A DNA stretch of 53,846 nt from a virus, in the IMG/VR virus record IMGVR_UViG_3300000558_000007. One strand, written 5' to 3'. Positions 20,092 through 41,013 of the stretch are shown here, in pieces; positions within the stretch are counted from its first letter, which is position 1; every line of letters begins with the position of its first letter. The notes below the pieces were generated by a model. The model did no database searches, was not told the DNA's origin, and saw only the letters and a list, made by a program, of their open reading frames with translations. The position numbers were made by a program, and so were the translations under genes.

Positions 20092-20550
20092 ATGGATGTC
20101 TATCGAACAATTGATGTCGATGCAATATCAAATATTTTAAATCATCCGAAAGTTTTTAATTTCATAACGGATGACAGGTCACCGGATTTTTTCACTCCAA
20201 TTGTTAACCCACAAATTATTTATTTGATAGATGATAAAAAACAAGGTGTTGTCAGGATAGACCCGATGAATGGAATTATGTGCAGTGTGCATATTGCCAC
20301 TCTACCTGATATGTGGGGCAACGCTGTGAACTTTGTCAAAGAATGTTTGGCATGGGGTTGGCAAAACACCACATACATGAAAGTCATAGCAATAATCCCG
20401 GAATTTAATAAACATACAATTTCGTTGGCAACGCGATCAGGCTTTGAGCGTGAAGGCGTTTTGAGAAAATCATTTTTGAAAAATTGGAAATTGCATGACC
20501 AGGTTGTTTTTGGTTTGTGCAAGAAAGGAGAAATAACATGCCAATGGTAG
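20092..20550 (+). CDS. GNAT-family N-acetyltransferase
   Basis: 152 aa. C-terminal NKHTISLATRSGFEREGVLRKSFLKNWKLHDQVVFGL fits the RimJ/RimL-like GNAT pattern. Confidence 0.6.
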   Translation: MDVYRTIDVDAISNILNHPKVFNFITDDRSPDFFTPIVNPQIIYLIDDKKQGVVRIDPMNGIMCSVHIATLPDMWGNAVNFVKECLAWGWQNTTYMKVIAIIPEFNKHTISLATRSGFEREGVLRKSFLKNWKLHDQVVFGLCKKGEITCQW

Positions 20551-21371
20551 CGGGGGCAGCGGCTGTTGTAGGAGGATGGGCGTCAGCAGGAGCAACAGCA
20601 ATTGGGTTGGCAACAGCAGCAACAGCAATTGGCGCGGTCGTTGAAAGCGTTGTGGTTGGCGCTATATATGGTGCTGTCATTGGGGCGGCGACATCTGCCG
20701 TTACTGGTGGTAATATTTTATCCGGAGCGTTAAAGGGGGCTGCCGTGGGAGGCGTTACGGCGGGGGTTGCAACCGGTCTCAGTCAGGCATTTTCAACTGC
20801 AGCACAGACGACGACTGCTAACGCAAGTGCAAGTCAAAGCCTGAATGCTGCCCCATCACCCGCAAGTCCAAACATAACACCCATGAGCAATAACGTATCA
20901 CCTGCCATAGGAAAAGGTTTGTCACAGAATGTCAGCGGCGTTACAGCTTTGGAAAACAGCGCCGGAACTCAACTGATACAGGGGGGCTCGTCTGGTGTTA
21001 ATGCTGCTTCAAATGCCGTGCAGACCGCAGGGAAACAAAGCACATCTGGCGGTTTGTTATCTTCTGCAACGAAAACCCTGGCCAACAAAGAAGTAATAGG
21101 TAGTGGTGTCGAAGGTGCTTTTAAAGGTATAGGGCAAGTTGCTGCCGCAAAAATGGAATCTGACAGCGCTGAAGAACAGGCAGAAAAAGAAGCTGCTATA
21201 AAGGCAGAGGAAAAGGCCAATAATAAAACAGGGACCTTCACCAGCCGAAGCGTAGATATTAAAGTGCCGGATTGGTGGAATAAATATTTAAATCCAAGCG
21301 TTCAAGTTTCTGCCAATAAAGAGGATACAAGTCCAGGCAAGGGCCTTTTAAATACAGGGGTGACAGCATGA
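20538..21371 (+). CDS. Gly/Ala-rich membrane protein (putative internal/ejection protein)
   Basis: ATG preceded by aaggag. The N-terminal ~90 aa are glycine-zipper-like (AGAAAVVGGWASAGATAIGLATAATAIGAVV...). Confidence 0.5.
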   Translation: MPMVAGAAAVVGGWASAGATAIGLATAATAIGAVVESVVVGAIYGAVIGAATSAVTGGNILSGALKGAAVGGVTAGVATGLSQAFSTAAQTTTANASASQSLNAAPSPASPNITPMSNNVSPAIGKGLSQNVSGVTALENSAGTQLIQGGSSGVNAASNAVQTAGKQSTSGGLLSSATKTLANKEVIGSGVEGAFKGIGQVAAAKMESDSAEEQAEKEAAIKAEEKANNKTGTFTSRSVDIKVPDWWNKYLNPSVQVSANKEDTSPGKGLLNTGVTA

Positions 21372-21940
21372 ACTTAGAAGATGAAATTCGAAGGCAGACT
21401 CCAGTGGAGACGGGTGGAGATACTGTTTCAAATAATGAACAGCAACCACAAAATCAAAATAACCAAGGGGATCAGCAACAGCCACAAACGAATTCTCAAG
21501 TTGATTTAAAAACTCAAGAGCAAATGGATATCTTCATCTCAAATGGCATGATGATGATTCATAACTCCAAGGTATCTGATTCAATTCTATCCAAAATCCT
21601 CAAGGAGCAAGATAAGATAAAAGCCATAGCTGAGGCTATGGTGTTAATCATTAATCACCTTGTTGATTCTGCGGCTCAAAATGGACAAGCATTGACCAAT
21701 GAGGTGTTGGTGTTTGGCTCTAATTTTTTGTTGGGGGAATTAATATCCCTGGCTGAAGCCGCAGGTATGCAAAAGCTCAGTGACGAACAAAAAACAGAAG
21801 TATTGCAACGTGGGGTCGGAATGTTTATTGACGATGCTGTAAAACAGGGCCGGATCACTAAAGATCAATTGGCTGCATTAGGTGAACAAGTGAAGCAGAC
21901 ACCTGAAGGTCAAAAAATTATGCAACACGGAGGTATGTAA
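21368..21940 (+). CDS. Hypothetical protein (190 aa; putative internal virion protein)
   Basis: ATGA overlap. Q/N-rich N-terminus. Confidence 0.45.
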   Translation: MNLEDEIRRQTPVETGGDTVSNNEQQPQNQNNQGDQQQPQTNSQVDLKTQEQMDIFISNGMMMIHNSKVSDSILSKILKEQDKIKAIAEAMVLIINHLVDSAAQNGQALTNEVLVFGSNFLLGELISLAEAAGMQKLSDEQKTEVLQRGVGMFIDDAVKQGRITKDQLAALGEQVKQTPEGQKIMQHGGM

Positions 21941-21943
21941 GCA

Positions 21944-22939
21944 ATGGTTTCTTGGGGTTCAGGTCTTTTGGCTGTTGTCGGCGGGGCGGGGGAAGGAGCT
22001 GGGAATACGATTAAAGAACAGGCCAAAGATGAAAGAATAGCCAGCATTGAAGAAAAAAAGGCTGAGGCCTTACTACTCCGCCAGAAAAACTTGGCAAGAT
22101 ATCAATCAGATTTACAAGCATCCCGAGATGAATCACACATGGCACATGATTCCAAAGAATCATCGCTGGACAGAGACTTTAAATCTAAAGAATCTTTGCT
22201 TAACCGGAATTTTGATTCCGAAGAGGCTGGGTTTGATCGATCTTTCAAATCGAATGAGGGTGCATTAAATAGGGGCTTTGATGCTGAACAAACAAGGTTG
22301 CAAGCTGACTTGGGCTTGAGGAATGCAAAAGCAATGGCAGCATATAGCGCATCTTTTAAAACAACGTCACCTACAGAAATCGAACAGAAGTATAATTTTC
22401 TGGCACAAACTTTTGGTGAAGAGAAGGCCAAAGAACTTGTCATGTCATCAATGGATCGAGGTACAAATGGGGAAAATGCGCTTGACAATAGAAAGTTATG
22501 GAATAAGGCGTATAACGATCAATTGGATATTTCTACAAGTACCGTAAATGATAATCGACCATACAAAGAAAAAGTCGAAGAGGCCAAGGCCATTGCAGAT
22601 ATGGTTTCAGGTGTGAAATTAAGCAATAGCACAGAAGGCGGGAAAGGGTCTGAGAATCCGTTTGATAAATATCACAACGATTACAACGCTGCACGAAAAA
22701 ATACAGATACTGACCAAGAGCCAAAACACGCAGGGACAAATGTATTTAAAGCGCTTAAAAGTTCCGGAGGGCAATATAATCCAAGTGATGGCACCATAAC
22801 ATTCATTCCCAAAGACGAGGACGATCTCAAAAGAATCTTTTTAGATATCAGTGGTCAAGGTATCAAATTTGATGCTCACCAAGATTCAACCGGCAAGTTT
22901 GTACTTGAAATCAAAAACAATGCAAAGATGGAAAAATAA
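21944..22939 (+). CDS. Hypothetical protein with four 11-aa repeats (putative internal virion protein)
   Basis: 331 aa. SSLDRDFKSKE / SLLNRNFDSEE / AGFDRSFKSNE / GALNRGFDAEQ at nt ~22151-22290. The stop overlaps the giant ORF's start (TAATG). Confidence 0.45.
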   Translation: MVSWGSGLLAVVGGAGEGAGNTIKEQAKDERIASIEEKKAEALLLRQKNLARYQSDLQASRDESHMAHDSKESSLDRDFKSKESLLNRNFDSEEAGFDRSFKSNEGALNRGFDAEQTRLQADLGLRNAKAMAAYSASFKTTSPTEIEQKYNFLAQTFGEEKAKELVMSSMDRGTNGENALDNRKLWNKAYNDQLDISTSTVNDNRPYKEKVEEAKAIADMVSGVKLSNSTEGGKGSENPFDKYHNDYNAARKNTDTDQEPKHAGTNVFKALKSSGGQYNPSDGTITFIPKDEDDLKRIFLDISGQGIKFDAHQDSTGKFVLEIKNNAKMEK

Positions 22940-25900
22940 TGACTTTTTCTTTTATGGATGACCCAAGATGGATAGAATTGGATGCACAATCTAAGCAAGG
23001 TATGATTAATGCTGCGTTTGCAGATCAGGTAGTATCAGATCCACGGTGGGATTCCCTTGAAGATAACGAGAAACAGTATATGCATAATAGTTATTTGCAG
23101 GATGCAAAGACATATGACATGGAAGTTTCTCCACATGCAGAGGGGTTTGTTGGTGCTGTAAAAAGTGGCGTTAAACAAACGGCAAATAGTCTTAGGACTG
23201 CATTTAATGTTGTGACAAATGATGAAGCAGAAGTCGAAAAATTAACTCAAGACGCTTCAAAAATCCTTAAAACACCACAGCAGCAGTTATTTGAGGAAGC
23301 ATTACAGAGCAGAAAAACAGACGATAACGTTAATGCCACTGGCTGGGATAGTTTTAAACAGGGTGTCAGTAATGTCGCCGGGGCAGCTTGGGAAAAACCG
23401 CTTGGCGCATTGCATGAAGCAGCTGGGCAGGTGCCGAATGCCGGAGTTATCGTGGGTGGTGCATTAGCTGGTAGTGCCTTGGCTGGCGGTGCATTAGCCG
23501 GTGGTATGGTTGCTGGCATTGCTGGTGGTATCGTTGGAACTCTGTTTGGAAATACTGCCCTTGAAACTGGTGGCATTGCTCAAGATCAAACCAATGCGGG
23601 CAATTATGATCGAGCTGACGTATTAAAGAAAGGTGCTATAAAGGGTGCGGCTCTCACTGCATTTGATGTTGCATCAATAGGTTTATCAAAAGCCATTTTC
23701 ACTCCTGCGTTTAAAGCTGTAAATAAAGCATCTCAAACGGCAATGCAGGAGGTCTTGAAGGCCAGCAAGATTAATCCGTTTGATGACGCTGCCGTAAGAG
23801 TTGCGCTGGCTCAGGACCAGGCTTTGAAAACTGCGGTGATGAATGCCGGGGCAAAGGCAGCTGCAGAAGCTGCACCGAAAGGGATAAAAGGGGCTGGTTT
23901 GTTTGGGACTGGTATGGCCATAGACACTACCATGGAGGGGTTTGGGGAATATTATTCCTCTAAGCTCGCGGGTCTCGATGCCAATGCAACGGATGCAATC
24001 CTTGAGGCTGCCATGTCAATCCCGCATGGAGTTGCAGAAGTGTCAATAGGCAAAACCTTGGCAAAAGCTAAAGAAATATTACCGCAATCAGTCGGCGGAG
24101 ACGTATCAAATATAGGGGCTGCTCAAACAACTGATGAAGCTGTGCAAGCATTTGAGTCGTCCATATCTGCCGATCTTGATACAGTCATGGCAAAGCATGT
24201 TGACCCGGGCGGAATTTTATCCAGGGAACAAAAGGTAAGCCAGATCCGACAAGAATCTGACCAGTTCGGACAATTTCAGGAAGCGTTCCGGGACCAGAAA
24301 GTCAATCAGTTTGAGCAGAATTTAAAGCAGGCACAGGATGATATCCAGGAGTATCCAGACCTGCCACCTATTCAGCCGGACGTGGAATCGCTACGGAAAG
24401 AATGGGAAGAGAGGAGAGCCAGTGCTCAAACAAATGCGCCGGCCACGTCAAGAAGTCAGCTTATTGCAGATGAATCCAACACTTTTGATGATTTTCTTTA
24501 TAATATCCAGTCTGAGAGTTTTGAAGATGGATTGAGAAAAGCCCAGGCTGATATCAAACAGCCACAGCAGCAGTCGCCTATTCAACCTGATGTTGATGCT
24601 TTACGGCTGGAATACGAATCTCGTCAGGCAGATGTAAGAGCGCGACAAATGTCCGCCCCCGGGAGTGCCCCCGGGAGGGAATATGAATTGCAGCAGGCAA
24701 CAAATGCCACTGACGTTTCTACAATGTCTCAAAGCGAAATAAACTCAGAAATAAAAAGACTTGGTAACGTTCTTGAAGATTATAACTCCGGGGTGATAAA
24801 AAACATTGATGAAAGGATTATTGAGAGATACCAATCTTTGGTTGATGAAGAGAGTGGCCGTCGCACAGGCGAAAAATCAGAAGATTTTAAAAAAGATAGT
24901 TGGTTTGAATCGAAAGTCAAAGCGGATAAATACCTGGCAAGCCTTGGATATAAAAACGAAGGAGACTCTTATCTTTCTTCTGGTAAACCACATGCCAATA
25001 TCGAAAAGGGCGGGATGCATCAAGGTGGATTTACTGTAAAGTTTTCTGATTATCCTGGGGATGTAGAAGACGACATAAAAAAAGCAGCAAGGATTCTTGA
25101 TAAAACAGAGAATGAGGTTAAAAGGCAGTATGCAACGGTCCTTGATAAGTATGGAGTGGATGAAGCGAACAGGTTGTTGAGAATCAATATAGAAAGAGAA
25201 ATCAACAACGGGCAAGCGCAAGATATCACCCTATCCCTGAAAGATGAAAAACAGCGTTCCTTTGTCGATCAAAGAATTAGTAAGCTGGGCTCAATTGAGG
25301 CTGTCGATAAGGCGTATAATCGTGATGACCAGGTGAGTCGATATGCACGAGCAAAGGCCAGGGAGTTTTATGGTGGTGAAGTTTTAAAGACTGAAATTAC
25401 AAAAGAACCTTGGGAAATGACACGCGATGAATATGTTGAAAATAACTTTAACGTAGATCGTGAAAGCACATACATTGATGAAATTAAAGCTGTTTCTCGT
25501 GGACATAAACCTTCTCATTATGGAGCTATCAGAAACGATAACGCAATATCAGCCGCAAAAAAAGACAGCAGTTTAAAGGTCTATGAGGACGTCACGAAAA
25601 GTGGCGACTATATTGTGGTTAAAGATACAGAATCAGGCCGTAAAACAGCAAACGAACTCATATCTTTATCACAAAAAAGAGCAGATATATTCTCAAGCAA
25701 GGATATTGAATTAATAGACGAATGGAATCAAAAGTTTAGTGAATTGATGGGTTATGATCAAGCCCTTATCAACTCAATACGGGACGTTTCAGGTAGAGGT
25801 AATTTAAAGCTTGAAGCAGCAAGAGTGCATAAATACAAAATTCAAGAAGCATTAAAAGCAGGTAGGAACATACCAAAATCAGTATTAAAAGATTACCCCG

Positions 25901-28900
25901 ATTTAAAAACAGACACTCCCGGCGCCAGCGATGCAAGCGCACAGCAAGAATCTACTCCAACCAACAATGGGAACTTGTCAGTGGCCCCGGGCCAAGCCGT
26001 GACCTGGAAGGACAAAAAAGGCAAGTCTTTTTCCGGTGAAGTGGTGCAAAAACAAGGGAAGTCTGGCCAAGTATGGCAAGTCATTAAGCCGGATGGTAAG
26101 AAAACATTTGTTCATGAGAAGAATTTTTATGTTGTGGATAAAGGTGCGCCTGTTGAATCAGAAAACATTCATAATTTTGACACAATGGTAAAGGAAGCTG
26201 CTCGTTGGCGCGGAGCTGCCATGAATGTAGCCGAACGTGTCTCAGGAGATAAAAAGAAGGCACTGGCACTTTCAAAGCAGACGACAAAGGGTGATCTTGA
26301 TGCGTACCTGATAAAAAAATACGACATCGATGAACTCACGGCAAGAGATGTTTCGAATGAATTGACACGCAAGGATATTAAGCCAGACAAGACAGCGGCC
26401 TTAGATGACTTTAAAAATGAGCCATGGTATCATCTTGGTTCAAATACCATTGAATCCGGTCCTGAATTGAGTGGTAGAGGTTCGCAAAACCCCAAAAATG
26501 ATCCACAAAGCGGTTTGCCGCCAACCGATGAGCCACAAAGTTACGAAGACAAACAAGGCAGCCTCTTTGAAGAACAGACCGACCAAAGAAGAATCCCTGG
26601 AAGCAAAACGGGCGATCTTGCAGGGGGCAATGAAAGACGCTATGCGGATACCGGAGGAAAAGAAATTTCCTCTCAACAAGAAGTAAAACCCAGTGTTCTT
26701 CCAACAAACAAGCTTGACAAGCAAGAGCCAAAGCAAGAACCCTGGATGCAAACTCAAGAAGATTATTTAAAGTCAAATAAAATCGATCTCAAGAATAGGA
26801 ACAAAAAAGGCGATGCAATAACAGCCCACTTACAATCTGTAAAAGAAGCTTACAGAAACGGATTGAACGTCCCTGAAGAGAATTTAAAGCGATATGGTTT
26901 GAGTGGGGAAGATCCGGAAATGGATGCACTTGAGCGGTTTGATGCAAAACAAAAAGCGAAAGATAAAGACACATATGGCGCAAAGAACAAAGTCTTCACC
27001 GCCGAAGCCGCAGACAAAGCCAGGGATCTTTTAAGAAAAAAGCTGTCCGGAAATCAGTTAAATTCAGGCATTGACCCGGAAATCATGTTGGCAGGCATCC
27101 AGCTTGCCGGGTATCACATTGAGGCAGGGGCACGTACCTTTGCCGAATATTCAAAGGCAATGATTCAGGATGTCGGCGACGCGGTAAAACCATATCTGAG
27201 ATCCTTTTATGAAGGTGTCAGGCATTTCCCAGAATTCGATTCTGGTGGGATGACATCATCCATTGAACTCGACGGCAAGACAGAATCAGGAAATATTGAT
27301 AATTATACAACAGAGGAGAATAAAAATGTCGCTCAGTACGATACCGGCACCGATTCTGAACGAAATCGCGGAAACTCAAGAACTATCGACGGATTGGGCG
27401 AAGAGAACATTTCCGATGGATCAGGACCAGCAACGGGAGCAGACGGAACTGGAGTACGATCAGTTGATAAAGAAGGTGTCTCCGGACGTGGCGAAGGCAG
27501 TCCTGGATATGAAACTCCTCCTGCTGGAAAACGTGGCGATCAGTCGCCATATTCAACGGACGGACCGGACGGGCCTGAGGGCAGCAATGCCGGAAGTGAC
27601 AACGATACAAGAGGCGGTGATGTTGGCTTCGATGGAAAACAACCTGACCGCATCCCAACAAAAGGTGTTGTCGATACAGCTCAAAAAGGAAGTGACCTTG
27701 AATCAAAAATAGCCGATCAAAAAAAAGCGGCACGTATCAAGACGGTGAATGCCGATCTATCCAACATTGAAACGACACTACCAATTCTTCACCCGGGGCA
27801 ACATGAGGATGTTCTGTTCGCTGAAACCAGGTTTTTAAAGCCTGATGGCCATGGCGTTATGTTAACCAATGGCACAGGCACCGGGAAAACTTTTTCCGGG
27901 CTTGGCATCATCAAACGGTTTGAGCGTGACGGCAAAAAGAACATATTGGTGATTGCTCCGGATAACGTGATCATTAATGCCTGGACAAAAGCCGCCAGGC
28001 TGTTTGATATTTCCATGCACAAGCTTTATGACACTAAAGATGTCGGCCAGGATATCACAATCACGACATACGCCAATTTTAGGGACAACAAGACACTTGT
28101 TTCCAGGGATTGGGATCTGGTTATCGCTGATGAGTCACACGAACTGAGCATGAATAAAGCAGGCGGAAAAACCGAGTCTTTGACAATGTTCCGAGCCATA
28201 ACGAAACATCCGAGAGGGGTGCAGGACCGGGCTGAATTTTTACATCCGGATTTATTCGCTGCCAGGGGAGATTCAAAGAAGGCTGATGATGCATGGCAAA
28301 AAGCTCTTGACGAGGTAAGACAAGACGTTTCTAACAGCCAGCAATCAAAAGCCGTTTTCCTTTCAGCAACCCCGTTTGCATACGAAAAAAACATTGATTA
28401 TGCCGAGGGTTACCTTTTCAATTATGGAGCAGACCGTGACAATATCGGCTATAATTCAACCGATGCATACCAGCAATTCATGGTTGAGCATTTTGGCTAC
28501 AGGATGAGGTACAATAAGCTCACCGAACCGGATGCCGAGGTTGATCGTGGGGTGATGCAAAGACAGTTCAATTCATGGCTGAAAAAAGAAGGCGCTCTAT
28601 CCAGCCGGGTTTTATCAGTCGATTACGACTATGACAGGCGGTTTATCTTAACAGAGTCTGCCGTAGGTCAGAAAATCGACGACGGATTTGCATTCCTGCA
28701 TGAGAATTACAAAGAGTATAACGAACTGACCTCTTTCATAAAAGATGGTTTTGATTATTTGCAACGGCGGTATCTCCTTGAGGCGATCAAAGCCAAAGAG
28801 GTTATCCCGATCATAAAAGATCATCTTGCGCATGGCCGAAAGGTCGTTGTCTTTCATGACTATATCAAAGGCGGGACAACAAACCCATTTAATGTCAAAG

Positions 28901-31900
28901 AGTTGATAGACAGCGATTTTTACAATGGGAAATTAAAAGAGCAGGCAGAAAAGTTGACCGATGCACGACCGGACTTGGTGAACCTTCCTATCAAGAACCT
29001 TCCTGCTCCGTTGGCAACACTCAAGGCAGCTTTCCCGGGACTTCTTGTTGTCAATGGTCAAACAGTTTCAAAAAAAGAGATGCAGGAGAATATCAATACT
29101 TTTAACGATGACGCTTCGGGGCCATGTGTGTTGATGGTGCAATCGGATAAAGATAAGGGGTGGTCAGGGCATGACACGACAGGTAAGCACCAGCGGGTTT
29201 TAATCAATCTTGGTTTGCCGACACGTCCAACACGGGCTATTCAGCAGGAGGGAAGAATTTACCGGGTGGGCCAGGCCAGTGATGTAATGTTTCGTTATTT
29301 GAATACCGGTACAAATTGGGAGCGGTGGGCATTTGCCTCCACCATAGCCCAACGTGCGTCTGCGGCTGAAAATCTGGCAATGGGTGAAAGCGCCAGAAGT
29401 TTGCAGGATTCTTTTATTGATGCGTTTGAAGCCTCTGACAATTATCATGCTGGAATGCCCAATGAAGGGAAGGGTGGGAAAGAGCAGGACGCAACAAACA
29501 ACGCGGCGTTGACAGAATGGGACCGGGCCACATCATTTTATTTCGGACAGCAAAAAAAGACTGCCAGGACAAAGGCGAAAGAGGGCAAGGATTATTTTGC
29601 CACCCCGGAGCCGCTTGGACTTAAAATGGTTGAGTGGGCAGGCATAGAAAGTGGGGATAGTGTTCTTGAGCCGTCTGCCGGTCATGGTGCTATTGCGCGC
29701 TGGTTCCCCGGGAATGTTGATGTTACGGCCATTGAACCATCCGATGAATTATCCAGCCGGTTAAAAATGGTTGCACCAGATGCAAAGGTTCTCCAGGATG
29801 ATTTTGAGAATCATCACCTCACAAATAAATATGACGCTATTATGATGAACCCGCCGTTCGGATCGGCTGGCAAAACAGCCATGGAGCATGTTGAGAAGGC
29901 GTTTAAACATTTGCGGGACGGTGGCCGGCTTGTTGCGATTGTACCCCGAGGTCCTGCCATGAATAAACGTGTGGATAAGTTTCTTTATGGAGAGGATCTG
30001 GACGGAAAACTCTTAAACCCGAATGCTCACCTGATGGCTGAATTCCTTTTGCCTGAATCGACATTTGAACGGGCCGGGACAAAGGTGGTTTCAAGGGTTA
30101 TTATCATCGACAAAAAAGCAGGTGATGTTAAACCGTATCATCAATTGTCATTGGACTATTCAGGCGCCAAAGATCTTAAAGAATTTTTTGCAAGAATAGA
30201 GAACTCCGGTGCCCCTGCCAGAATCACAACGGAAGAACGGGATAGCGCTAAGTATTCAACCTCCACAGACAAAAAAGTAAATACAGATTCCGATTCGTTT
30301 CGGGAGTGGTTCGGCGATTCTCAGGTTGTGGATGAGAATGGTGAACCGCTGGTTGTTTATCATGGGACAAATGCCCATGTAACTCAATTTAAGAAGAAGT
30401 ATCTTGGATATGAAACAGAGTCAGGACCTGCTCAAAGAATAGCAAAAATTGGGTTTTGGTTTAATGAAAAACCAATGGCCATGAGGGAATATAGTAGAGA
30501 ATCTGCCGGAACAAATTATAAAGCTGATATGCCAGTTTACTTATCAATACAAGAACCTTTCCATACTTCTCTTTATGATTTATTTAATTATGCTGAAAAA
30601 AGGAAAGATATCGAGCAATATATTAAAGACATAAAAGCTGATGGATATGATGGCCTATCTGTAAACGATTCTGAATTTGGCGGTATTTCTTATGTCGCCT
30701 TCTCCCCCACCCAAATAAAATCCATCTACAACACCGGCACCTGGGACGGCAGCAATCCGGATATCAGGTATCAAATCGACTCCACCCCAGGCCAATTCCT
30801 AACACTCGACCAAATCAAAGACATTCCTATCGATGATGGGCGTATCATTATACGTTTTTCTGACGCCATAGATGAAGATTTATCAAGGGGATGGTCAGGA
30901 TTTATGGGTGAGAGGTCTGATAACTCACCTCAAGACGCTGTCATGCAAGAATTTGGACAAGATCTTAAATTTGAAGAAATAAATAATAATCTGTACTTCT
31001 TTTACGGCGAAGACGGTGAAAAATTAGGAGAGGTCAGAAAAGATAACAACACGGGTGACTGGGTCCATGTTGACCACGATGGAGTCGCCGGGTTCGCTAT
31101 AGAAACGGACGAATACGGGGATACTGTTGGGGAAATAATTGAGAGCTTAAAAAATACACCGTACCACCAATGGGATTTTTATGAATCAACAGACGAAGGT
31201 AAGATTTGGAAAGAAGACAATCCAGTGGTCTTGTTCTCAGGAGACGCCGGGGAAAATAAAAATATAAATATAATTCTCGTTGGGGCTTCAAAAGAGACTC
31301 TAAATAAATTTAAAAAACAATTAACAACAAACGCGCCGATATCAAAACTACAAACCAAAATAGACTCTCTTCCCGGCAAAGGGCTGTCCATAGACCAGAT
31401 CAAATCCCAATACAAAAATCAGCAGATCACAACTCAAAAAGACGGGACTTTGTCAATTCGCTTCACAAACGGCAAAGGCGTCAAAATAAGGGCTGTCGAT
31501 CATATCGGGGGCGATGATATTCAGGTTGCCCTGAAAAGCGGTAGGATGGACCGTGGTGGAGTCATTCTGGGAAAATACCAGGATGGAGAAATAACATTCA
31601 ACATGAACATGGCAAATATAGGTACCGCCATTCATGAAAACTATCATGCGCTCAAAGCTTTAGGCATGATCACCCCGGCAGACGAGAAAACACTCAACCA
31701 CTTCACCAAGATGCTCAAATCGCAGAAAAAATATCGGTACGATATCCAGGAAGACATGGAAGAAAACCAGGCAAACACTTTGGCTCAGCTCGTGGCTGAT
31801 CGGAAAAATTACCGGGAAGGATCAAATGTTCATGCGCTTATCCAGAAGCTTATGGACTTCTTTGATGCGTTGGTTCACATCGGCCGGCAGTCTGCCCGTA

Positions 31901-34900
31901 AGCTTGCCAGGGAATATGAGAGTGGGGATATTTATGGGCGTGAGGCAGAAACAAAGTCAAATCAGCTTTTAGATGGCGCACAATATTCAGTCTCTTCAGA
32001 CGTGACTGAGGAAGAACAAGCCACAGCATACAGCCAAATTTTATCCGGCCTGAAAAACGTTATCTCCAACCGAAAAAATAAAGGGCCAGAATATAAGCCG
32101 GATATCGGAGTGATTGAAGGCAACCTGGGTTTGATGTCTCATTACTCCGAAGGTATCCCGGCCATGAAAAGAACTTTTGATGAATTGCTGAAGCGCTCTG
32201 AATGGAAGTTTGAAAAAGAGAACGAACTTTCAAAGAACGGCAAAGAATCAATGATCGGCACCATGGATGATTTGAAAAAACACAATAAATCGGCTTATTC
32301 GTCCTTGAAAAAATATTTGCTGGACAGGGATATTAATCAGATCGGCTCCGTTCTTTATCAGGATGAAGATGGGGGATGGACCATTAAATCACCAAAAGAC
32401 GAGAAAACCGGCAAGAGAACCGTCTTAGAAGAAGGCATTGCGACGAAAAGAGAAGCCCGGAAGTTGGCAATTCAATACGAGATTGATGCATATCCGGATC
32501 CCGCCGGACGAGATGCCTTGAGAGCGTTTAGGTCTCTGACTGCAAACCTCCATGATTTTTATGCAAAATCCTGGGAAGACATTGTTAAGGACTATGAAGA
32601 GCGTGGGCTCTCTTTGCCTCAAGTGGTGACCAGAACAAAATCGGGAGAAGTCAGGATAGATTTGAAAGTAGCCCTGGCACAAATGGGAGACAGGTCGTCA
32701 TATTATTTCCCCCGGCAACGATCAAACGGTGACTGGATGGTTCATGCCGAAAAAAAAGGCGAACACGATTTTATTGAATATAGGGATAGTAAGATAGGCG
32801 CTGATTATCTGGCCGGTAAGCTTAAAGCACAAGGATACACTATTAAAGCTCACGAAGTGGATGGACAGATTATTGAAGGCCCTCAAAAAGTAGGCGGCAT
32901 ATCAGAAGACCTATACCAGGGAGTGAAAAACATCCTGGCCACACAATCCATGGTGAACCAGGCGTTGAGCGAAACCAAGCTGGATGCCAAACAAAGGACG
33001 TTGGGTGATATCGGATTGTCCGGGGAATGGCGCGGGAAAGATTATTTCATACCCAATGGAGGTGTTTACGAATGGTCATCTTCGGTTCTCAAAGACCTTG
33101 GTGGTCGTGAATATTCAGATCATGGCAAAGATGGTAGATCATGGTCACCCGGGTATTGGTTTGAAAGTGCTCCAAAAGACATCGAAGAACTGGTAACAAA
33201 TGCCTTGTATGTCTCCAGAGGGCAGGAAACAGATGTCTCTTTTGAGATTTCCCAGAGCCTGGCCAACCAACTTACAGACACGTTACGCGCCAGGGGGAGT
33301 CGGGCCAGGATGATTGCCAGGTCGGATGCCATCGGTAAAGATGTCCATATCGGATATGAAACGGACCCCGTGAGTGCCATTGCCCAGGCCGTGAATTCAG
33401 CCGCCGGAGGGTATGCAAAACAGCAGGTGGCTATGAACACGTCAAAGGCCATCACGGGCCAGCACTACACTTGGGCCGAATGGCAAGAACAGCATAATGA
33501 TTATGACGCCCTTGTCAGTGCCGAGGATGAGTTATCGGCATTGAAAAAAAATTCAGAGACAGAAGAAGAAAGAATTGCAGATATTGACCGTGAGATCAAA
33601 GATTTGCAACGGGAACGGACGGGGGTGGCAACTGAATCGGAAAAGTCCAGGCAAGATCGACTTTTCCGGATCGGAAAGTTGTTCCGTGAAAAAGAGAAAA
33701 TAAGAAAATGGGAAAACGATAAGCAGGCAGCAAAACTACACCAGGATATTGCACGACTGAGAAGCAATATCCATAAAGCATATCGGGAATATATCCAGGA
33801 CAATATGCTGGATCCGAAACGGCAGAAGCGTGCATATACTGACGCTGTAAACGCCGTTGAGAATGTCCTTAAAAATGACGAGGCCGGGGACCGGGCCATT
33901 AATACACTGAAAGGACTTGCATCGGTATGGTTTCTGGGCGGGCGTGTATCATCAGCCGCAATCAACCTCACAGCCATGGGTACTACGGTCCCGGCGGCCA
34001 TGGATGCGTATGGAGATATCCCCTTGCAACGGACAATGAAGCATATTGTCAAAGCCGGGAAAGCTTATATGTCTTTTGTGACGGGTAAGGGGAATGTGTC
34101 TCAATCAGACCGTTTGATCCTGGAAGATATTTTTTCCAGGGGGTGGGTAGCGGCTCAGCTGAACATGGAAACAGTTAATGCCCTGAAATCAGGCCCGGCT
34201 CAAAAATACGGCAAAGCTGTTGAACTGCTCATGATCCCGTTCAAAGTCACTGAAGAGTTTAACCGGGGCACAACAATCCTGGCGGCATACAAAGGGATCA
34301 TGGCAGAGAATCCGGGTATGAACCGTGAGGATGCTCTCTTAAAGGCTAAAAAGGTGTCCGACCGTGCCCATGGTATTTACGGGGTTGAAAACCAACCGGC
34401 ATTGCTTCGGAAGGGCCGGGGGCTCCGGGCGGCATCCGCCATGTATATCTTCCAGACATACATGCACAATTACCTGACAACGCTGGCCTATATGATCGGC
34501 AGAAAACAGGCAAAAGCGGCAACATACATGCTCCTGTCTCCTATGGTATTCGGCGGAGCTGCCAGCTCGCTCCTGATGCCAGCAATAAAGATGATATTTA
34601 AAGCCATGGATGAAGATGATCCTGAAGAAAAGATTTACCAAATTGCCGAAGAATTGTTTGGTGAAGCGGGTGGTGATGTCGCTCGTTATGGCTTACCGGG
34701 ACTGGCCGGGGTAAGCCTGAAAGGATCGCTGGCACCGAATCTGCCGGACTTCCAGGAGCCGTTGGATATTCTTGGCCCCATCGGTGGGATGATGCGGAAT
34801 ATTTATGACGGTGCCGTGAACATTACTCATGGTGATTACCTAAAGGGTATTGAAAAAATCAGTCCGCTTGCCATGGGGAATGTTGTCAAAGCTTATCGGG

Positions 34901-35301
34901 AGGTTTCTGAAGGTGTAACAACCAGGTCAGGAGATCCTGTCTTTTTCGGCAACGAACCGATTAAAGGAGATCTTGGAACCGGAATTATGAGAGCTGCAGG
35001 ATTCAACCCAATCAAAATCGCAAAGCCCCGTGAAATCCAGTGGAACGAGACGACTTTAAAACAGCAGTATGCAGAAATGAAACGTGATATTTACAGCAGG
35101 ATTGTTCGTTATCATGCACAGCCTGTGACAAAAAAGGACCCGGATGAATGGCATGAAATTGTGTCGGAAATAAAAAAGTTTAATGCAAGGGTGAAAAGTC
35201 ATGGCTTAACTGATATAGTTCCACAAATTACAGGGAAAACTATTAAAGCTCGTATGAGAAGAGCATACCGCCCAAATAAGCGCGAACGCGAGAGGGCATA
35301 A
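22939..35301 (+). CDS. Giant polyvalent protein (4,120 aa): SNF2-like ATPase + N6-adenine methyltransferase + ART-like + HExxH metallopeptidase, with glycine-zipper/hydrophobic termini
   Basis: One uninterrupted 12,363-nt ORF. The motifs are listed in the sub-features below. It sits downstream of putative ejection proteins and upstream of the fibre and lysis genes. Confidence 0.85.
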   Translation: MTFSFMDDPRWIELDAQSKQGMINAAFADQVVSDPRWDSLEDNEKQYMHNSYLQDAKTYDMEVSPHAEGFVGAVKSGVKQTANSLRTAFNVVTNDEAEVEKLTQDASKILKTPQQQLFEEALQSRKTDDNVNATGWDSFKQGVSNVAGAAWEKPLGALHEAAGQVPNAGVIVGGALAGSALAGGALAGGMVAGIAGGIVGTLFGNTALETGGIAQDQTNAGNYDRADVLKKGAIKGAALTAFDVASIGLSKAIFTPAFKAVNKASQTAMQEVLKASKINPFDDAAVRVALAQDQALKTAVMNAGAKAAAEAAPKGIKGAGLFGTGMAIDTTMEGFGEYYSSKLAGLDANATDAILEAAMSIPHGVAEVSIGKTLAKAKEILPQSVGGDVSNIGAAQTTDEAVQAFESSISADLDTVMAKHVDPGGILSREQKVSQIRQESDQFGQFQEAFRDQKVNQFEQNLKQAQDDIQEYPDLPPIQPDVESLRKEWEERRASAQTNAPATSRSQLIADESNTFDDFLYNIQSESFEDGLRKAQADIKQPQQQSPIQPDVDALRLEYESRQADVRARQMSAPGSAPGREYELQQATNATDVSTMSQSEINSEIKRLGNVLEDYNSGVIKNIDERIIERYQSLVDEESGRRTGEKSEDFKKDSWFESKVKADKYLASLGYKNEGDSYLSSGKPHANIEKGGMHQGGFTVKFSDYPGDVEDDIKKAARILDKTENEVKRQYATVLDKYGVDEANRLLRINIEREINNGQAQDITLSLKDEKQRSFVDQRISKLGSIEAVDKAYNRDDQVSRYARAKAREFYGGEVLKTEITKEPWEMTRDEYVENNFNVDRESTYIDEIKAVSRGHKPSHYGAIRNDNAISAAKKDSSLKVYEDVTKSGDYIVVKDTESGRKTANELISLSQKRADIFSSKDIELIDEWNQKFSELMGYDQALINSIRDVSGRGNLKLEAARVHKYKIQEALKAGRNIPKSVLKDYPDLKTDTPGASDASAQQESTPTNNGNLSVAPGQAVTWKDKKGKSFSGEVVQKQGKSGQVWQVIKPDGKKTFVHEKNFYVVDKGAPVESENIHNFDTMVKEAARWRGAAMNVAERVSGDKKKALALSKQTTKGDLDAYLIKKYDIDELTARDVSNELTRKDIKPDKTAALDDFKNEPWYHLGSNTIESGPELSGRGSQNPKNDPQSGLPPTDEPQSYEDKQGSLFEEQTDQRRIPGSKTGDLAGGNERRYADTGGKEISSQQEVKPSVLPTNKLDKQEPKQEPWMQTQEDYLKSNKIDLKNRNKKGDAITAHLQSVKEAYRNGLNVPEENLKRYGLSGEDPEMDALERFDAKQKAKDKDTYGAKNKVFTAEAADKARDLLRKKLSGNQLNSGIDPEIMLAGIQLAGYHIEAGARTFAEYSKAMIQDVGDAVKPYLRSFYEGVRHFPEFDSGGMTSSIELDGKTESGNIDNYTTEENKNVAQYDTGTDSERNRGNSRTIDGLGEENISDGSGPATGADGTGVRSVDKEGVSGRGEGSPGYETPPAGKRGDQSPYSTDGPDGPEGSNAGSDNDTRGGDVGFDGKQPDRIPTKGVVDTAQKGSDLESKIADQKKAARIKTVNADLSNIETTLPILHPGQHEDVLFAETRFLKPDGHGVMLTNGTGTGKTFSGLGIIKRFERDGKKNILVIAPDNVIINAWTKAARLFDISMHKLYDTKDVGQDITITTYANFRDNKTLVSRDWDLVIADESHELSMNKAGGKTESLTMFRAITKHPRGVQDRAEFLHPDLFAARGDSKKADDAWQKALDEVRQDVSNSQQSKAVFLSATPFAYEKNIDYAEGYLFNYGADRDNIGYNSTDAYQQFMVEHFGYRMRYNKLTEPDAEVDRGVMQRQFNSWLKKEGALSSRVLSVDYDYDRRFILTESAVGQKIDDGFAFLHENYKEYNELTSFIKDGFDYLQRRYLLEAIKAKEVIPIIKDHLAHGRKVVVFHDYIKGGTTNPFNVKELIDSDFYNGKLKEQAEKLTDARPDLVNLPIKNLPAPLATLKAAFPGLLVVNGQTVSKKEMQENINTFNDDASGPCVLMVQSDKDKGWSGHDTTGKHQRVLINLGLPTRPTRAIQQEGRIYRVGQASDVMFRYLNTGTNWERWAFASTIAQRASAAENLAMGESARSLQDSFIDAFEASDNYHAGMPNEGKGGKEQDATNNAALTEWDRATSFYFGQQKKTARTKAKEGKDYFATPEPLGLKMVEWAGIESGDSVLEPSAGHGAIARWFPGNVDVTAIEPSDELSSRLKMVAPDAKVLQDDFENHHLTNKYDAIMMNPPFGSAGKTAMEHVEKAFKHLRDGGRLVAIVPRGPAMNKRVDKFLYGEDLDGKLLNPNAHLMAEFLLPESTFERAGTKVVSRVIIIDKKAGDVKPYHQLSLDYSGAKDLKEFFARIENSGAPARITTEERDSAKYSTSTDKKVNTDSDSFREWFGDSQVVDENGEPLVVYHGTNAHVTQFKKKYLGYETESGPAQRIAKIGFWFNEKPMAMREYSRESAGTNYKADMPVYLSIQEPFHTSLYDLFNYAEKRKDIEQYIKDIKADGYDGLSVNDSEFGGISYVAFSPTQIKSIYNTGTWDGSNPDIRYQIDSTPGQFLTLDQIKDIPIDDGRIIIRFSDAIDEDLSRGWSGFMGERSDNSPQDAVMQEFGQDLKFEEINNNLYFFYGEDGEKLGEVRKDNNTGDWVHVDHDGVAGFAIETDEYGDTVGEIIESLKNTPYHQWDFYESTDEGKIWKEDNPVVLFSGDAGENKNINIILVGASKETLNKFKKQLTTNAPISKLQTKIDSLPGKGLSIDQIKSQYKNQQITTQKDGTLSIRFTNGKGVKIRAVDHIGGDDIQVALKSGRMDRGGVILGKYQDGEITFNMNMANIGTAIHENYHALKALGMITPADEKTLNHFTKMLKSQKKYRYDIQEDMEENQANTLAQLVADRKNYREGSNVHALIQKLMDFFDALVHIGRQSARKLAREYESGDIYGREAETKSNQLLDGAQYSVSSDVTEEEQATAYSQILSGLKNVISNRKNKGPEYKPDIGVIEGNLGLMSHYSEGIPAMKRTFDELLKRSEWKFEKENELSKNGKESMIGTMDDLKKHNKSAYSSLKKYLLDRDINQIGSVLYQDEDGGWTIKSPKDEKTGKRTVLEEGIATKREARKLAIQYEIDAYPDPAGRDALRAFRSLTANLHDFYAKSWEDIVKDYEERGLSLPQVVTRTKSGEVRIDLKVALAQMGDRSSYYFPRQRSNGDWMVHAEKKGEHDFIEYRDSKIGADYLAGKLKAQGYTIKAHEVDGQIIEGPQKVGGISEDLYQGVKNILATQSMVNQALSETKLDAKQRTLGDIGLSGEWRGKDYFIPNGGVYEWSSSVLKDLGGREYSDHGKDGRSWSPGYWFESAPKDIEELVTNALYVSRGQETDVSFEISQSLANQLTDTLRARGSRARMIARSDAIGKDVHIGYETDPVSAIAQAVNSAAGGYAKQQVAMNTSKAITGQHYTWAEWQEQHNDYDALVSAEDELSALKKNSETEEERIADIDREIKDLQRERTGVATESEKSRQDRLFRIGKLFREKEKIRKWENDKQAAKLHQDIARLRSNIHKAYREYIQDNMLDPKRQKRAYTDAVNAVENVLKNDEAGDRAINTLKGLASVWFLGGRVSSAAINLTAMGTTVPAAMDAYGDIPLQRTMKHIVKAGKAYMSFVTGKGNVSQSDRLILEDIFSRGWVAAQLNMETVNALKSGPAQKYGKAVELLMIPFKVTEEFNRGTTILAAYKGIMAENPGMNREDALLKAKKVSDRAHGIYGVENQPALLRKGRGLRAASAMYIFQTYMHNYLTTLAYMIGRKQAKAATYMLLSPMVFGGAASSLLMPAIKMIFKAMDEDDPEEKIYQIAEELFGEAGGDVARYGLPGLAGVSLKGSLAPNLPDFQEPLDILGPIGGMMRNIYDGAVNITHGDYLKGIEKISPLAMGNVVKAYREVSEGVTTRSGDPVFFGNEPIKGDLGTGIMRAAGFNPIKIAKPREIQWNETTLKQQYAEMKRDIYSRIVRYHAQPVTKKDPDEWHEIVSEIKKFNARVKSHGLTDIVPQITGKTIKARMRRAYRPNKRERERA
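23431..23576 (+). other. Domain: N-terminal glycine-zipper hydrophobic segment
   Basis: VPNAGVIVGGALAGSALAGGALAGGMVAGIAGGIVGTLFGNTALETGG. Confidence 0.6.
27340..27690 (+). other. Domain: Gly/Asp/Ser-rich disordered linker
   Basis: GTDSERNRGNSRTIDGLGEENISDGSGPATGADGTG...GPDGPEGSNAGSDNDTRGGDVGFDG. Confidence 0.6.
27790..29340 (+). other. Domain: SNF2/SF2-type ATPase-helicase
   Basis: Motif I GTGTGKT (27871-27891), motif II ADESHE (28126-28140), motif III LSATPF, motif VI QQEGRIYRVGQ (from 29242). Confidence 0.8.
29560..30130 (+). other. Domain: N6-adenine DNA methyltransferase (motif I before motif IV)
   Basis: SAM motif VLEPSAGHGAI (~29659) and catalytic NPPFG (29848-29862). Confidence 0.8.
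30290..30790 (+). other. Domain: ADP-ribosyltransferase-like (ART-PolyVal type)
   Basis: FREWFGDSQVVDENGEPLVVYHGT...NDSEFGGISYVAFSPTQIKS matches my memory of the ART domain found in polyvalent proteins. Not verified by search. Confidence 0.55.
31440..31720 (+). other. Domain: zincin-like metallopeptidase (HExxH)
   Basis: AIHENYHALKALG, with HENYH at 31633-31647. Confidence 0.55.
33880..35301 (+). other. Domain: C-terminal hydrophobic/helical region (possible membrane insertion or channel)
   Basis: Hydrophobic stretches GLASVWFLGGRVSSAAINLTAMGTTVPAAM, AASAMYIFQTYMHNYLTTLAYMIG and ATYMLLSPMVFGGAASSLLMPAIKMIF. Preceded by a coiled-coil at ~33480-33800. Confidence 0.5.
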
Positions 35302-35325: not shown

Positions 35326-35706
35326 ATGAAACCACTACCAATGTCGCAGGGCCGTGTTGTCGCTAAAGGATCTCAGGAAAAAATGCTGATGGCTGTTGAC
35401 TCAGCCGGGAATGCACAAACAATAAGTTCGTCTGAGTATCGTGAATTTTTTGTGCCAGCCGGAGGAGATTTCAACGGGGCGCTTGTTCTTGTTCAGATCG
35501 GGACGTTATCCGGGTATGATCCTGAATCAAATCACATACCATTTTTCTGGTCTGACAAAAATCCTGATTCCGACCCAACTGCAGTTGTTGGTAATTTCGA
35601 CTGGTATGGCAAATCTTCAGAAATTGCCAAAAAAGCCGGATTTAGCATGGGTTTTTTTAAAGCGTCTACAGCCGGGTCAAAAGTTGTTATCTGGTGCAGA
35701 GAATGA
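35326..35706 (+). CDS. Hypothetical protein (126 aa)
   Basis: ORF with an RBS, directly after the giant gene. Confidence 0.45.
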   Translation: MKPLPMSQGRVVAKGSQEKMLMAVDSAGNAQTISSSEYREFFVPAGGDFNGALVLVQIGTLSGYDPESNHIPFFWSDKNPDSDPTAVVGNFDWYGKSSEIAKKAGFSMGFFKASTAGSKVVIWCRE

Positions 35707-37085
35707 TGCAAGGCATAATCAGGGAAAACATGGCATATGGTGCACCACACGGCATTAACGGCCATATGCTGTTATATGATAAACCTCCGAGTTCAAACCA
35801 AAAAATGCTTATCCCTTTGGTGACTTCAATTGTACCAGTAAAAGGAGAAGCTCCAGCAACATTTGCAAGATCAACAACAGCAACTGTAACTGACTTTGAA
35901 GGGATTGTTCATACTGCTAAAATAAATGAACTCAGGTTTCCTAATGCCAGGAGGGTTGAGAACTTACTATCAAACACAGAAACACTTTCAACACAAACAG
36001 TGTCTGTTATCTCTGGTGCATCTTATATTCTTTCATTCTCAGGTACTGGTACTATTACATTATCAGGTGCAGCAACTGGAACTTTATCTGGTTCGGCAGG
36101 GACAAGAGTGGAAGTCTCAAAGACTATGGCATCTACAAGCTTAACATTAACGGTTACTGGTTCTGTGTTGCAGGCAATGCTTGAGACAAAAACAGGAACC
36201 CAGACTAAAGCATCTGAATATGTTAGCTCTGGAGTCCTATCCTCCCCGTTTCACGGAGCGTATGTTGATGGAGTCAAGTACTTCACTACTGACAGGTCAT
36301 GTAATTTACTACCTAATCTTAAAGGTGCTTTGATCGAACCAGCAGCAACGAATTTATTCTTAAACTCCGATGCTCCTGTAACTCAGACAATCACTGTTGT
36401 GTCAGGAACTAAATATACTGTTTGGGGGACGGGTGTAGGGTCTGTGATTCTTTCAGGTGCAGGTACTGGAACTGTTACTGCAAACAATGCAGTAATATTC
36501 ACAGCAAGTTCTACAGCTTTGATATGCACCGTTGTATCAATGCTTACAATGCAAGTTGAAGCCGGTACCGGAGCAACAAGCTACATACCAACAACAGGTG
36601 CTCCTATTTCACGAACTGCTGATAATCTGTATTACACAGTAACTAATGTCATCACTCAAGGCCAAGGTAGTCTATATTGTGAAGTTATATTTAACTCAAG
36701 AACACCATTAGATGAACGGATTCTTTATTTGTCTGACGGAACAACTACAAACAGGTTAATTATAAATTTAAACTCTTCTGAGGTTATAGTGGTTTCGATA
36801 TTTAATAATAACACTCAGGTTGGAGCTCTTTCGAGTGGTGTAGTAACAGTACTTGGAGTTAAATATAAGATACTATTAACATATGAGGATGACAGTATGA
36901 AATTATATGTTAATGGATCTCTTCGTGCAAATGATACATCTGGGTTAATGCCAACATTTTCTCCATCCTACCTTAATATAGGTAGTCAATATGGCGGAAC
37001 ATCTGTATCTGTTGGACTGTTTAAGAACATCAAGTACTTTTCAAATGTATTAACAGAATCACAAGCAATAAGGATGACATCATGA
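35703..37085 (+). CDS. Tail fibre / receptor-binding protein with a LamG-like C-terminus
   Basis: ATGA overlap. T/S/G-rich beta repeats (TLTVTGS, GTGTVTAN). The C-terminus (KILLTYEDDSMKLYVNGSLRANDTSG) is typical of concanavalin/LamG domains. Confidence 0.55.
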   Translation: MMQGIIRENMAYGAPHGINGHMLLYDKPPSSNQKMLIPLVTSIVPVKGEAPATFARSTTATVTDFEGIVHTAKINELRFPNARRVENLLSNTETLSTQTVSVISGASYILSFSGTGTITLSGAATGTLSGSAGTRVEVSKTMASTSLTLTVTGSVLQAMLETKTGTQTKASEYVSSGVLSSPFHGAYVDGVKYFTTDRSCNLLPNLKGALIEPAATNLFLNSDAPVTQTITVVSGTKYTVWGTGVGSVILSGAGTGTVTANNAVIFTASSTALICTVVSMLTMQVEAGTGATSYIPTTGAPISRTADNLYYTVTNVITQGQGSLYCEVIFNSRTPLDERILYLSDGTTTNRLIINLNSSEVIVVSIFNNNTQVGALSSGVVTVLGVKYKILLTYEDDSMKLYVNGSLRANDTSGLMPTFSPSYLNIGSQYGGTSVSVGLFKNIKYFSNVLTESQAIRMTS

Positions 37086-40968: not shown

Positions 40969-41013
40969 GGATTCTTAAAGAGCAGTGCATTTTAATCGCA
41001 GCGGAGTGTGTAG

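Follow-up and report, generated by a model that had tools for sequence, protein, structure and literature searches.

The 53,846-nucleotide (nt) stretch of viral DNA analysed here (IMG/VR virus record IMGVR_UViG_3300000558_000007, hereafter the window) carries, at 22939..35301 on the plus strand, a single gene for a protein of 4,120 amino acids (aa), to which we refer as the giant protein. The last 44 nt of the window are identical to its first 44 nt, as for a circularly closed assembly, and the window looks like a closed, complete phage genome. Since the ends match in this way, the share of the giant gene, 12,363 of the 53,846 nt or 22.96%, can fairly be worded as a percentage of the genome. 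The list of open reading frames (ORFs) and the translation give an ATG start and no internal stop, and the A of this ATG is also the last letter of the TAA stop that ends the ORF just upstream, at 21944..22939 (TAATG). At the base composition of the window, a stop-free run of 4,120 codons has a chance probability of about 1e-115. A sequence-only reading, made without database searches, had described one uninterrupted 12,363-nt ORF occupying about 23% of the genome and joined to its neighbour by the TAATG overlap, and all of this is present in the sequence. The PHROG matches of the protein are phrog_10691, phrog_5143 and phrog_10089 ('DarB-like antirestriction'), and together with its C-terminal domain they describe a giant polyvalent 'DarB-like', PLxRFG-tailed protein. 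At the nucleotide level, the gene had no match among 50,697 phage records, and phmmer returned no PDB sequence for the full-length protein.

The central part of the giant protein is composed of several enzymatic domains. A superfamily 2 (SF2) ATPase of the SWI2/SNF2 or Strawberry-notch (Sno) type occupies residues ~1620-2190 (27796..29508), with a ResIII/DEAD/SNF2-rel match to the N-lobe at residues 1635-1751 and a match to Helicase_C_4, the Strawberry-notch-type C-lobe, at residues 2080-2169. Its motifs I (GTGTGKT), II (DESH), III (SAT) and VI (QQEGRIYR) are intact. It is followed by an N6-adenine DNA methyltransferase (MTase) at residues ~2200-2410 (29536..30168), matched by the MTS, N6_Mtase and Eco57I models (MTase match at residues 2242-2340) and carrying VLEPSAGHG as motif I and NPPFG as motif IV. 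Next comes an ADP-ribosyltransferase (ART) domain of the ART-PolyVal family at residues 2465-2598 (30331..30732), recognized by PF18760 with an E-value of 1.7e-19 and 71.4 bits against a cut-off of 31.2. Among 30 homologues of this domain, H2475 is kept in 100% and D2571 in 97%, and judging from these residues it fits the H-Y-D type of PMC5512222. The ATPase motifs, the MTase and the ART-like module had all been named from motifs in the sequence-only reading, and the profile searches back each of them with Pfam matches. On the other hand, none of the LPD models of Pfam matched the giant protein.

A fourth putative enzymatic element, the HExxH module (residues 2812-3003; 31372..31947), lies downstream of the ART domain. 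It recurs as a unit, being 52% identical in a 579-aa protein with LPD3 (P0001) and 44% identical in a 1,674-aa protein with RadC (P0002). It is found in 45 of 161 related giants, and HE..H is kept in 42 of these 45. In an alignment of 27 sequences (22-74% identity), only H2899, E2900, H2903, E2942, A2945 and one Gly are invariant; an HExxH with a Glu about 40 residues downstream is, as far as motifs go, the gluzincin pattern. None of the Pfam metallopeptidase (MPTase) models matched the giant protein at E<=5, and Tox-MPTase2/3 appeared under threshold in 3-4 of the 27 homologues (Tox-MPTase2 in 3 of 27, best E 0.023). The predicted strands, HExxH helix and Glu-bearing helix agree with the zincin core order (PMC5512222) in an AlphaFold2 model built from a 3-sequence alignment, whose mean predicted local distance difference test score (pLDDT) is 52.8. 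A Foldseek search with this poor model and a search of PDB sequences with the 27-sequence profile returned nothing. The module is thus likely a zincin-like metallopeptidase: the motif singled out in the sequence-only reading is real and belongs to a conserved unit, but no curated family model was reached. The opening of the module (PG.G.S.DQIK...DG.LSIRF; 31372-31470, around residue 2812) is echoed about 195 residues upstream (PGQFLTLDQIKDIPIDDGRIIIRF; 30766-30850, around residue 2616). There, a block without family match (residues ~2610-2800; 30766..31338) opens with PGQFLTLDQIKD...IIIRF; it may be a degenerate or alternative copy with the same N-terminal element, and it is missing from the close relative P0019.

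The giant protein is closed by a PLxRFG domain at residues 3598-4109 (33730..35265). This domain matches the NCBIfam model NF032893 ('tail-700') with an E-value of 4e-42 and 144.4 bits against a cut-off of 100, covers profile positions 140-669 of 681 and ends 11 aa short of the stop codon. The region had been called a hydrophobic C-terminal region; what stands is a conserved domain, but only one segment of it, residues 3862-3887, is markedly hydrophobic. Searched against 1.84 billion cluster representatives, the PLxRFG profile gave 8,005 matches at E<=1e-3, 5,765 of them at E<=1e-10. In the best 144 representatives, a median of 3 residues follow the domain (at most 60 aa in 140 of the 144). 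The carriers are proteins of 2,000-5,600 aa, with a median length of 2,980 aa and a maximum of 5,613 aa. The domain is also present in 56 cultured phage records, where it closes 'DarB-like' giants; the carriers include Parlo, PEp14, LASTA, SopranoGao, Skulduggery, PBC5, Atu_ph08, POI1126 and Itty13. The C-terminal 561 aa were modelled by AlphaFold2 from a 12-sequence alignment as all-helical, with a mean pLDDT of 57.5, and Foldseek found nothing in PDB under E=1 for this model. A match to the T7 ejectosome (7k5c), at rank 44 with an E-value of 7.3 and obtained with a poor model, was dismissed as noise.

The PLxRFG domain is preceded by two further regions. A conserved pre-C-terminal region (residues ~3015-3530; 31981..33528) aligns in P0018-P0027 and many other relatives, in many of which it accompanies the PLxRFG domain, and it has no match in the Pfam, PHROG or NCBIfam libraries. 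Between the two lies a highly charged helical stretch (residues ~3531-3597; 33529..33729), where K/R/E/D account for 43% of residues 3501-3600, the low-confidence model has long helices, and weak SMC- and LysB-type coiled-coil matches occur. A coiled coil had been proposed here; what stands is a highly charged stretch with helices predicted at low confidence, and not a firm coiled coil.

At the opposite end, residues ~50-400 (23086..24138) form a conserved N-terminal module with no match in Pfam, PHROG or NCBIfam. It contains a hydrophobic segment at residues 165-208 (23431..23562), where overlapping [GAS]xxx[GAS] runs coincide with Kyte-Doolittle maxima of 1.68-1.78, the highest hydropathy in the giant protein, so that the glycine zipper noticed in the sequence is well founded. 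The module shares 37-64% identity with the metagenomic relatives P0014-P0017, one of which (P0017) has a weak Gly-zipper_Omp match, and 48 columns are invariant in an alignment that includes a Bacillus phage sequence. A tblastn search of cultured phages with the N-terminal 600 aa gave no match, and the link to this sequence, gp57 of Bacillus phage vB_BspP_Dartukuta (L006, 11827-24438; 4,203 aa, 'putative methyltransferase'), was found only via the intermediate P0017. Dartukuta gp57 carries the zipper module at residues 60-382 (27% identity, E 6e-14), has an ART domain, is free of Cys and fills about 21% of a 60.9-kb genome. It differs from the giant protein in that no PLxRFG domain is detectable by BLAST and its host is Gram-positive. 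Since it shares both the zipper module and the ART, giants of this type also occur in at least one phage that infects a Gram-positive host.

A pattern scan of IMG/VR located the N-terminal module at 55 loci, and it forms the N-terminus of its ORF in all 55; the contigs carrying it cluster at 55-63 kb. When the ORF was closed within the fetched DNA (n = 34), it encoded 2,269-3,570 aa in 31 cases and 782-1,478 aa in three. A PLxRFG end is present in 5 of 42 ORFs with the module, indicating that the two termini are independently combinable. On the phage-like contig L004 (Logan SRR14699985), the zipper module is a stand-alone gene of 1,001 aa at 10001-13006, and a separate Strawberry-notch-helicase giant gene of >3,452 aa lies 6 kb downstream at 19270-23006; the fusion seen in the window protein is thus split elsewhere. 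One feature of the giant protein, this N-terminal module, is found in no domain library.

The modules are separated by less conserved sequence. Residues 401-1330 (24139..26928) form a hydrophilic, charged and poorly conserved spacer with no family match above threshold, whose sole part recurring in relatives is a beta-rich conserved island at residues ~990-1076. Matches to FtsK_SpoIIIE (residues 878-940), ribosomal L35Ae (residues 1018-1050), PilJ and GH97_C lay far under their cut-offs and were dismissed as chance. Of the long helical/repeat regions suggested earlier, the repeats were rejected, because self-BLAST found none in the giant protein at E<=0.01 and only short motif echoes occur (QPDVESLRKEWE / QPDVDALRLEYE). 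The spacer is followed by a small, unnamed polyvalent-protein domain (residues 1331-1445; 26929..27273), which is 59-73% identical in P0019, P0021 and P0022 and matches phrog_938 at positions 1963-2068, outside any lysozyme domain. Next, a linker rich in G/D/S/N/P (residues ~1450-1600; 27286..27738), probably disordered, leads to the ATPase. With G/D/S/N/P/T/E at 60-62% and Gly at 13-19% over residues 1401-1600, it agrees with the G/D/S-rich linker described from the sequence.

Comparison with metagenomic relatives, gathered by three segment searches of a 5.8-billion-protein database, revealed which parts of this architecture are fixed. P0019 is 75-76% identical to the giant protein over residues 1445-2451 and 2801-4119 and is without the ART block. 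P0022 (4,024 aa) is 51% identical over the N-terminal 426 aa and 62% over the last 1,300 aa, and its centre carries a 2'-5' RNA ligase-like (LigT) domain, then an MTase, then a Sno helicase. The centre of P0021 is made of an inorganic pyrophosphatase (InPase), a Sno helicase and an ART. Relatives thus keep the termini and exchange the centre. Collectively, these alignments show conserved ends (the zipper module and the last ~1,100 aa) that can be viewed as a chassis and a centre that can be viewed as exchangeable enzymatic cargo. A homologous giant gene on the ENA contig L003 (ERZ21878363) had been called as two genes, of >3,617 aa and then 584 aa, and seemed at first to encode a separate PLxRFG protein. 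This was rejected, since the split at 9850-10060 is a 1-nt frameshift within continuous homology, due either to a sequencing error or to recent pseudogene formation.

The giant protein is also depleted of cysteine. It has a single Cys in 4,120 aa, versus 1.3% in the other plus-strand ORFs (binomial P = 2e-22), and the four ORFs directly upstream (18845-22939) have none in 1,187 aa. Parlo gp81, the ZX1 giant and Dartukuta gp57 (3,764-4,203 aa) likewise have no Cys. Such depletion fits an ejected protein; it would mark proteins that have to cross the portal and tail channel and the oxidising periplasm in an unfolded state, and it may be a general signature of ejected proteins.

The core of the giant protein has close counterparts in cultured phages. 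Residues 1321-2450 align collinearly with residues 1304-2499 of Serratia phage Parlo gp81 (3,764 aa) at 42% identity, and with the giant of Klebsiella phage vB_KpnP_ZX1 (3,867 aa) at 41%. In both, a Sno-type SF2 ATPase is followed by the MTase at the same distance from the N-terminus, the helicase starting at a nearly equal residue (1635 vs 1637). They also share the C-terminal PLxRFG domain, the Cys-free composition and the place of the gene, which closes the virion module and precedes the lysis genes. On the other hand, Parlo and ZX1 have an SLT domain at residues 44-150, where the giant protein has the glycine-zipper module, and LPD39 (plus GNAT in ZX1) in place of ART-PolyVal and the HExxH module; the rest of the phage is distantly related to them, with no nucleotide-level match. 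Pfam searches of the whole giant protein and of tiles found no SLT or other muramidase in it. A cell-wall hydrolase such as SLT is common in Bcep22/Parlo-type giants but may not define them.

Further examples of DarB-like giants are Burkholderia phage JC1 gp69 and Agrobacterium phage Atu_ph08 gp21. JC1 gp69 (4,515 aa, 22.1% of the genome) was detected in CsCl-purified virions with 51 unique peptides and the second-highest score after the capsid protein (PMC9144972), and the same article also cites mass spectrometry of Bcep22. Atu_ph08 gp21 has 4,877 aa (PMC6630229), and according to the same source the Bcep22 homologue carries an N-terminal lytic transglycosylase. Parlo gp81 has been described as combining a helicase, an MTase, a transglycosylase and an acyltransferase (PMC6606913), and in Lastavirus the 'PLxRFG protein' makes up 19% of the genome (PMC9505181). 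Giant DarB-like proteins taking 19-22% of 55-63-kb podophage genomes have been known since 2011, from Bcep22, JC1, Atu_ph08, Parlo and Lastavirus (PMC9144972, PMC6630229, PMC6606913, PMC9505181). The giant protein resembles those of Bcep22-like, PEp14/Parlo-like, PBC5-like and Lastavirus podophages, each encoded by one ORF of 3,700-4,900 aa that occupies 19-22% of a 55-63-kb genome.

Proteins of this general kind were defined as polyvalent proteins by Iyer, Burroughs, Anand, de Souza and Aravind in 2017, who described the SNF2-MTase dyad and the family-specific ART, considered zincin MPTases to be probable autoprocessing units, and reported an Acetonema prophage protein in which SNF2, MTase, MPTase and ART occur together (PMC5512222). 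In that survey, the Strawberry-notch-type helicase is a minority type. The giant protein likewise unites an SF2 ATPase, an N6-adenine MTase, ART-PolyVal and an HExxH unit in one late-gene ORF, with TerL, portal, major capsid protein and tail genes upstream and a tail protein and an endolysin downstream. It differs from the described polyvalent proteins in that the N-terminal module, the block at residues 2610-2800 and the pre-C-terminal region match no Pfam LPD or PolyVal model.

The kinship to P1 DarB is more distant. P1 DarB (2,255 aa, NC_005856) also joins an N6-adenine MTase to an SF2/SNF2-related helicase within a single protein, which is capsid-associated in P1. However, its MTase (residues ~91-290) precedes its helicase (residues ~833-1517), whereas the helicase (residues 1635-2169) precedes the MTase (residues 2242-2340) in the giant protein, and P1 DarB has 9 Cys and no PLxRFG tail, ART or HExxH unit. 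The two MTases are 26% identical (E 3e-8), and the helicase motif I region aligns with an E-value of 0.006. Since the domain order is reversed and only the MTase aligns significantly, the giant protein is not a DarB orthologue, although it may work in a DarB-like manner. The analogy with P1 DarB drawn in the sequence-only reading is loose: it holds for the MTase but not for the order of domains, nor for the helicases, which barely align. Furthermore, P1 is a myovirus in which the packaging of DarB needs DarA, Hdf, DdrA and DdrB (PMC9144972, citing Piya 2017). The virion RNA polymerase of N4-like phages (~3,500 aa) offers another parallel, being a giant encapsidated and ejected podovirus protein fused to a zincin-like MPTase and sometimes to an ART (PMC5512222; PMC13434306). 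Its conserved terminal modules differ from those of the giant protein, in which Pfam, PHROG and NCBIfam scans found no RNA polymerase domain.

The genes around the giant gene are arranged as in these phages. Upstream lie a primase, TerL (6270-7562), the portal (7568-9820), the major capsid protein (11097-12158), tail proteins and a tail-fibre-like gene. The portal is most like podovirus portals (best match 36%). Since, in addition, no tape-measure, tail-tube or sheath gene was found among the scanned ORFs, the virion is probably short-tailed. A GNAT-type acetyltransferase/head-morphogenesis gene (20092..20550, plus strand; phrog_651, phrog_4470) is syntenic with Parlo gp77 and the ZX1 GNAT; solo GNATs among late genes were considered possible capsid-delivered effectors by Iyer et al. 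(PMC5512222). It is followed by three plus-strand ORFs of 284, 190 and 331 aa (20517..22939), with zero Cys and no PHROG or Pfam match, which are candidates for separate internal or ejection proteins and share their slot with Parlo 'virion structural proteins'. Two small ORFs and a tail protein gene (35694..37085, plus strand; phrog_5939, phrog_1419) separate the giant gene from the endolysin (38093..38653, plus strand; phrog_315, E 2e-22), which marks the lysis genes after the structural block. The order tail, internal virion protein, GNAT, virion proteins, giant gene and lysis genes is shared with Parlo and ZX1. A promoter and terminator scan of 19.5-39.4 kb returned fewer sites than shuffled sequence, so that no operon boundaries can be drawn from it.

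The first of the three small ORFs (20517-21371, plus strand, 284 aa) deserves a separate description. Its first ~90 residues are almost all Gly/Ala/Val/Thr/Ser/Ile in a zipper-like arrangement, and it has no Cys and no family match. It is likely a separate membrane-inserting ejection protein, and it is a more conventional candidate for this role than the giant protein. Elsewhere in the window, minus-strand ORFs of 272, 134 and 337 aa at 39601-42434, with reversed GC skew, interrupt the otherwise plus-strand genome and could constitute a lysogeny or regulatory module. A G-rich imperfect hexamer array of ~200 bp, (GGGTCC/GGGTAC/GGGTAT/GGGATG)n, spans the closure junction (positions 1-110 and 53730-53846); it may encode a Gly-x repeat peptide or be structural DNA.

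Taken together, the giant protein is a member of the DarB-like, PLxRFG-tailed polyvalent giants of podophage-type viruses, and we consider it probable that it serves as a packaged and injected multi-enzyme cargo. Our confidence is much lower for any single enzymatic target than for this overall picture. Judging from homologue proteomics, gene position and composition, the protein would be made late, built in few copies into the procapsid or capsid, and expelled with the DNA at infection. The chassis termini would serve capsid incorporation and exit or membrane passage. In the recipient cell, the Strawberry-notch-type ATPase would translocate on incoming double-stranded DNA and, together with the adjacent MTase, could modify this DNA or shield it from restriction in cis, a mode of action already put forward for P1 DarB and for the SNF2-MTase dyad. 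A host target may be ADP-ribosylated by the ART, which is of the H-Y-D type, and the HExxH...E module, as a zincin-like peptidase, may either cut the polyprotein into working pieces or attack a host protein.

Several points weigh against this interpretation. Virion presence and injection rest on relatives, with a core identity of at most 42%. No Bcep22-type giant is known to have anti-restriction activity; to our knowledge only P1 DarB has been tested for it, which shares a 26%-identical MTase in the opposite order. The PLxRFG domain is not tied to short tails, since some of the phages that carry it bear names pointing to a siphovirus or myovirus morphology. Furthermore, the peptidase assignment is under cut-off in every curated model and its structure model is poor, and the roles suggested for the N- and C-terminal modules come from conservation alone. 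The sequence-only reading had proposed a virion-packaged, injected multi-enzyme effector: its enzyme domains are real, the gene slot is that of Parlo and ZX1, and a homologue, JC1 gp69, is present in virions, but packaging and injection themselves rest on homology and context.

An alternative, which we regard as unlikely, is that the giant protein acts as a conduit in addition to being cargo: its zipper N-terminus and PLxRFG C-terminus would insert in host membranes and form a trans-envelope DNA channel, thus combining a job of the T7 gp14/15/16 type with enzyme delivery. The 44-residue glycine-zipper hydrophobic hairpin speaks for such a role, as does the location of its module, which is N-terminal in all 55 viral loci and occupies the SLT position of the cultured relatives. 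An SLT lytic transglycosylase is characteristic of the ejection proteins of podophages, T7 gp16 among them. The extreme Cys depletion common to the giant protein and the upstream small ORFs, and the conserved termini around a variable centre, would also be in line with a channel. However, three to four small Cys-free ORFs lie directly upstream, one of which has a far longer Gly/Ala hydrophobic region. Moreover, the two ends are not an obligate pair, since PLxRFG terminates only 5 of the 42 module ORFs and most PLxRFG giants are without the module, which can even be a stand-alone protein of 782-1,478 aa. The PLxRFG domain itself has little hydrophobicity, with one clear segment, and its poor model has no T7 ejectosome match. 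A related and equally doubtful proposal is that the ~330-aa zipper module would be an undescribed leader domain heading a distinct and widespread set of giants, a functional counterpart of the SLT of Bcep22/Parlo-type giants that inserts in the membrane on ejection and, with the PLxRFG tail, threads cargo and DNA across the envelope.

It seems improbable that the giant protein is instead a late cytoplasmic enzyme that is never packaged and that methylates or remodels progeny DNA before packaging, its place in the structural operon reflecting a late need. The helicase-MTase dyad could indeed act on replicated DNA, virion placement is known from relatives and not from this phage, and no promoter or terminator signal divides the giant gene from its neighbours. 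Against this, homologues are abundant in purified virions (PMC9144972), and the near Cys-free composition of 4,120 aa would lack an explanation. The conserved non-enzymatic termini, along with the N-terminal cell-wall hydrolases of relatives (PMC6630229), point to envelope passage, and ART-PolyVal is typical of delivered effectors (PMC5512222). Finally, an assembly chimera or a sequencing-error fusion of adjacent genes, which the unusual size and the two gene calls of L003 might suggest, can practically be discarded, since independent assemblies hold the same blocks in single polypeptides (in one frame in P0018, P0019, P0021 and P0022, so that the chimera feared at the outset is refuted by P0019 and P0022 already), cultured phages hold homologues of 3,764-4,877 aa (PMC6630229), the split in L003 comes down to a 1-nt frameshift, and GC content runs without a break across the giant gene.

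Proteins of this kind, taking such a share of the genome and encoded at such a location, have all been previously described, and the giant protein adds no new principle. The earlier view of it as the prime candidate for new biology by size, domain mix and position is therefore not supported, because giants at 19-22% of the genome, combinations of SNF2, MTase, metallopeptidase and ART, and ~8,000 PLxRFG clusters are known. For annotation, the label 'DarB-like' overstates the kinship to P1 DarB. We know of no Bcep22- or PLxRFG-type giant that has been functionally tested, and such giants cost a fifth of the coding capacity in thousands of phages. The giant protein is a clean specimen of them, with intact catalytic motifs, relatives that have the same termini and other enzymes, and an N-terminal module that no domain library contains. 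If the leader proposal made for this module were true, the giant protein would at once be a component of the ejection machinery and the cargo that this machinery delivers. Its fixed ends, swappable middle and near-zero Cys content offer handles on how a small capsid takes up and later expels a protein of ~450 kDa, and on what the delivered enzymes counter.

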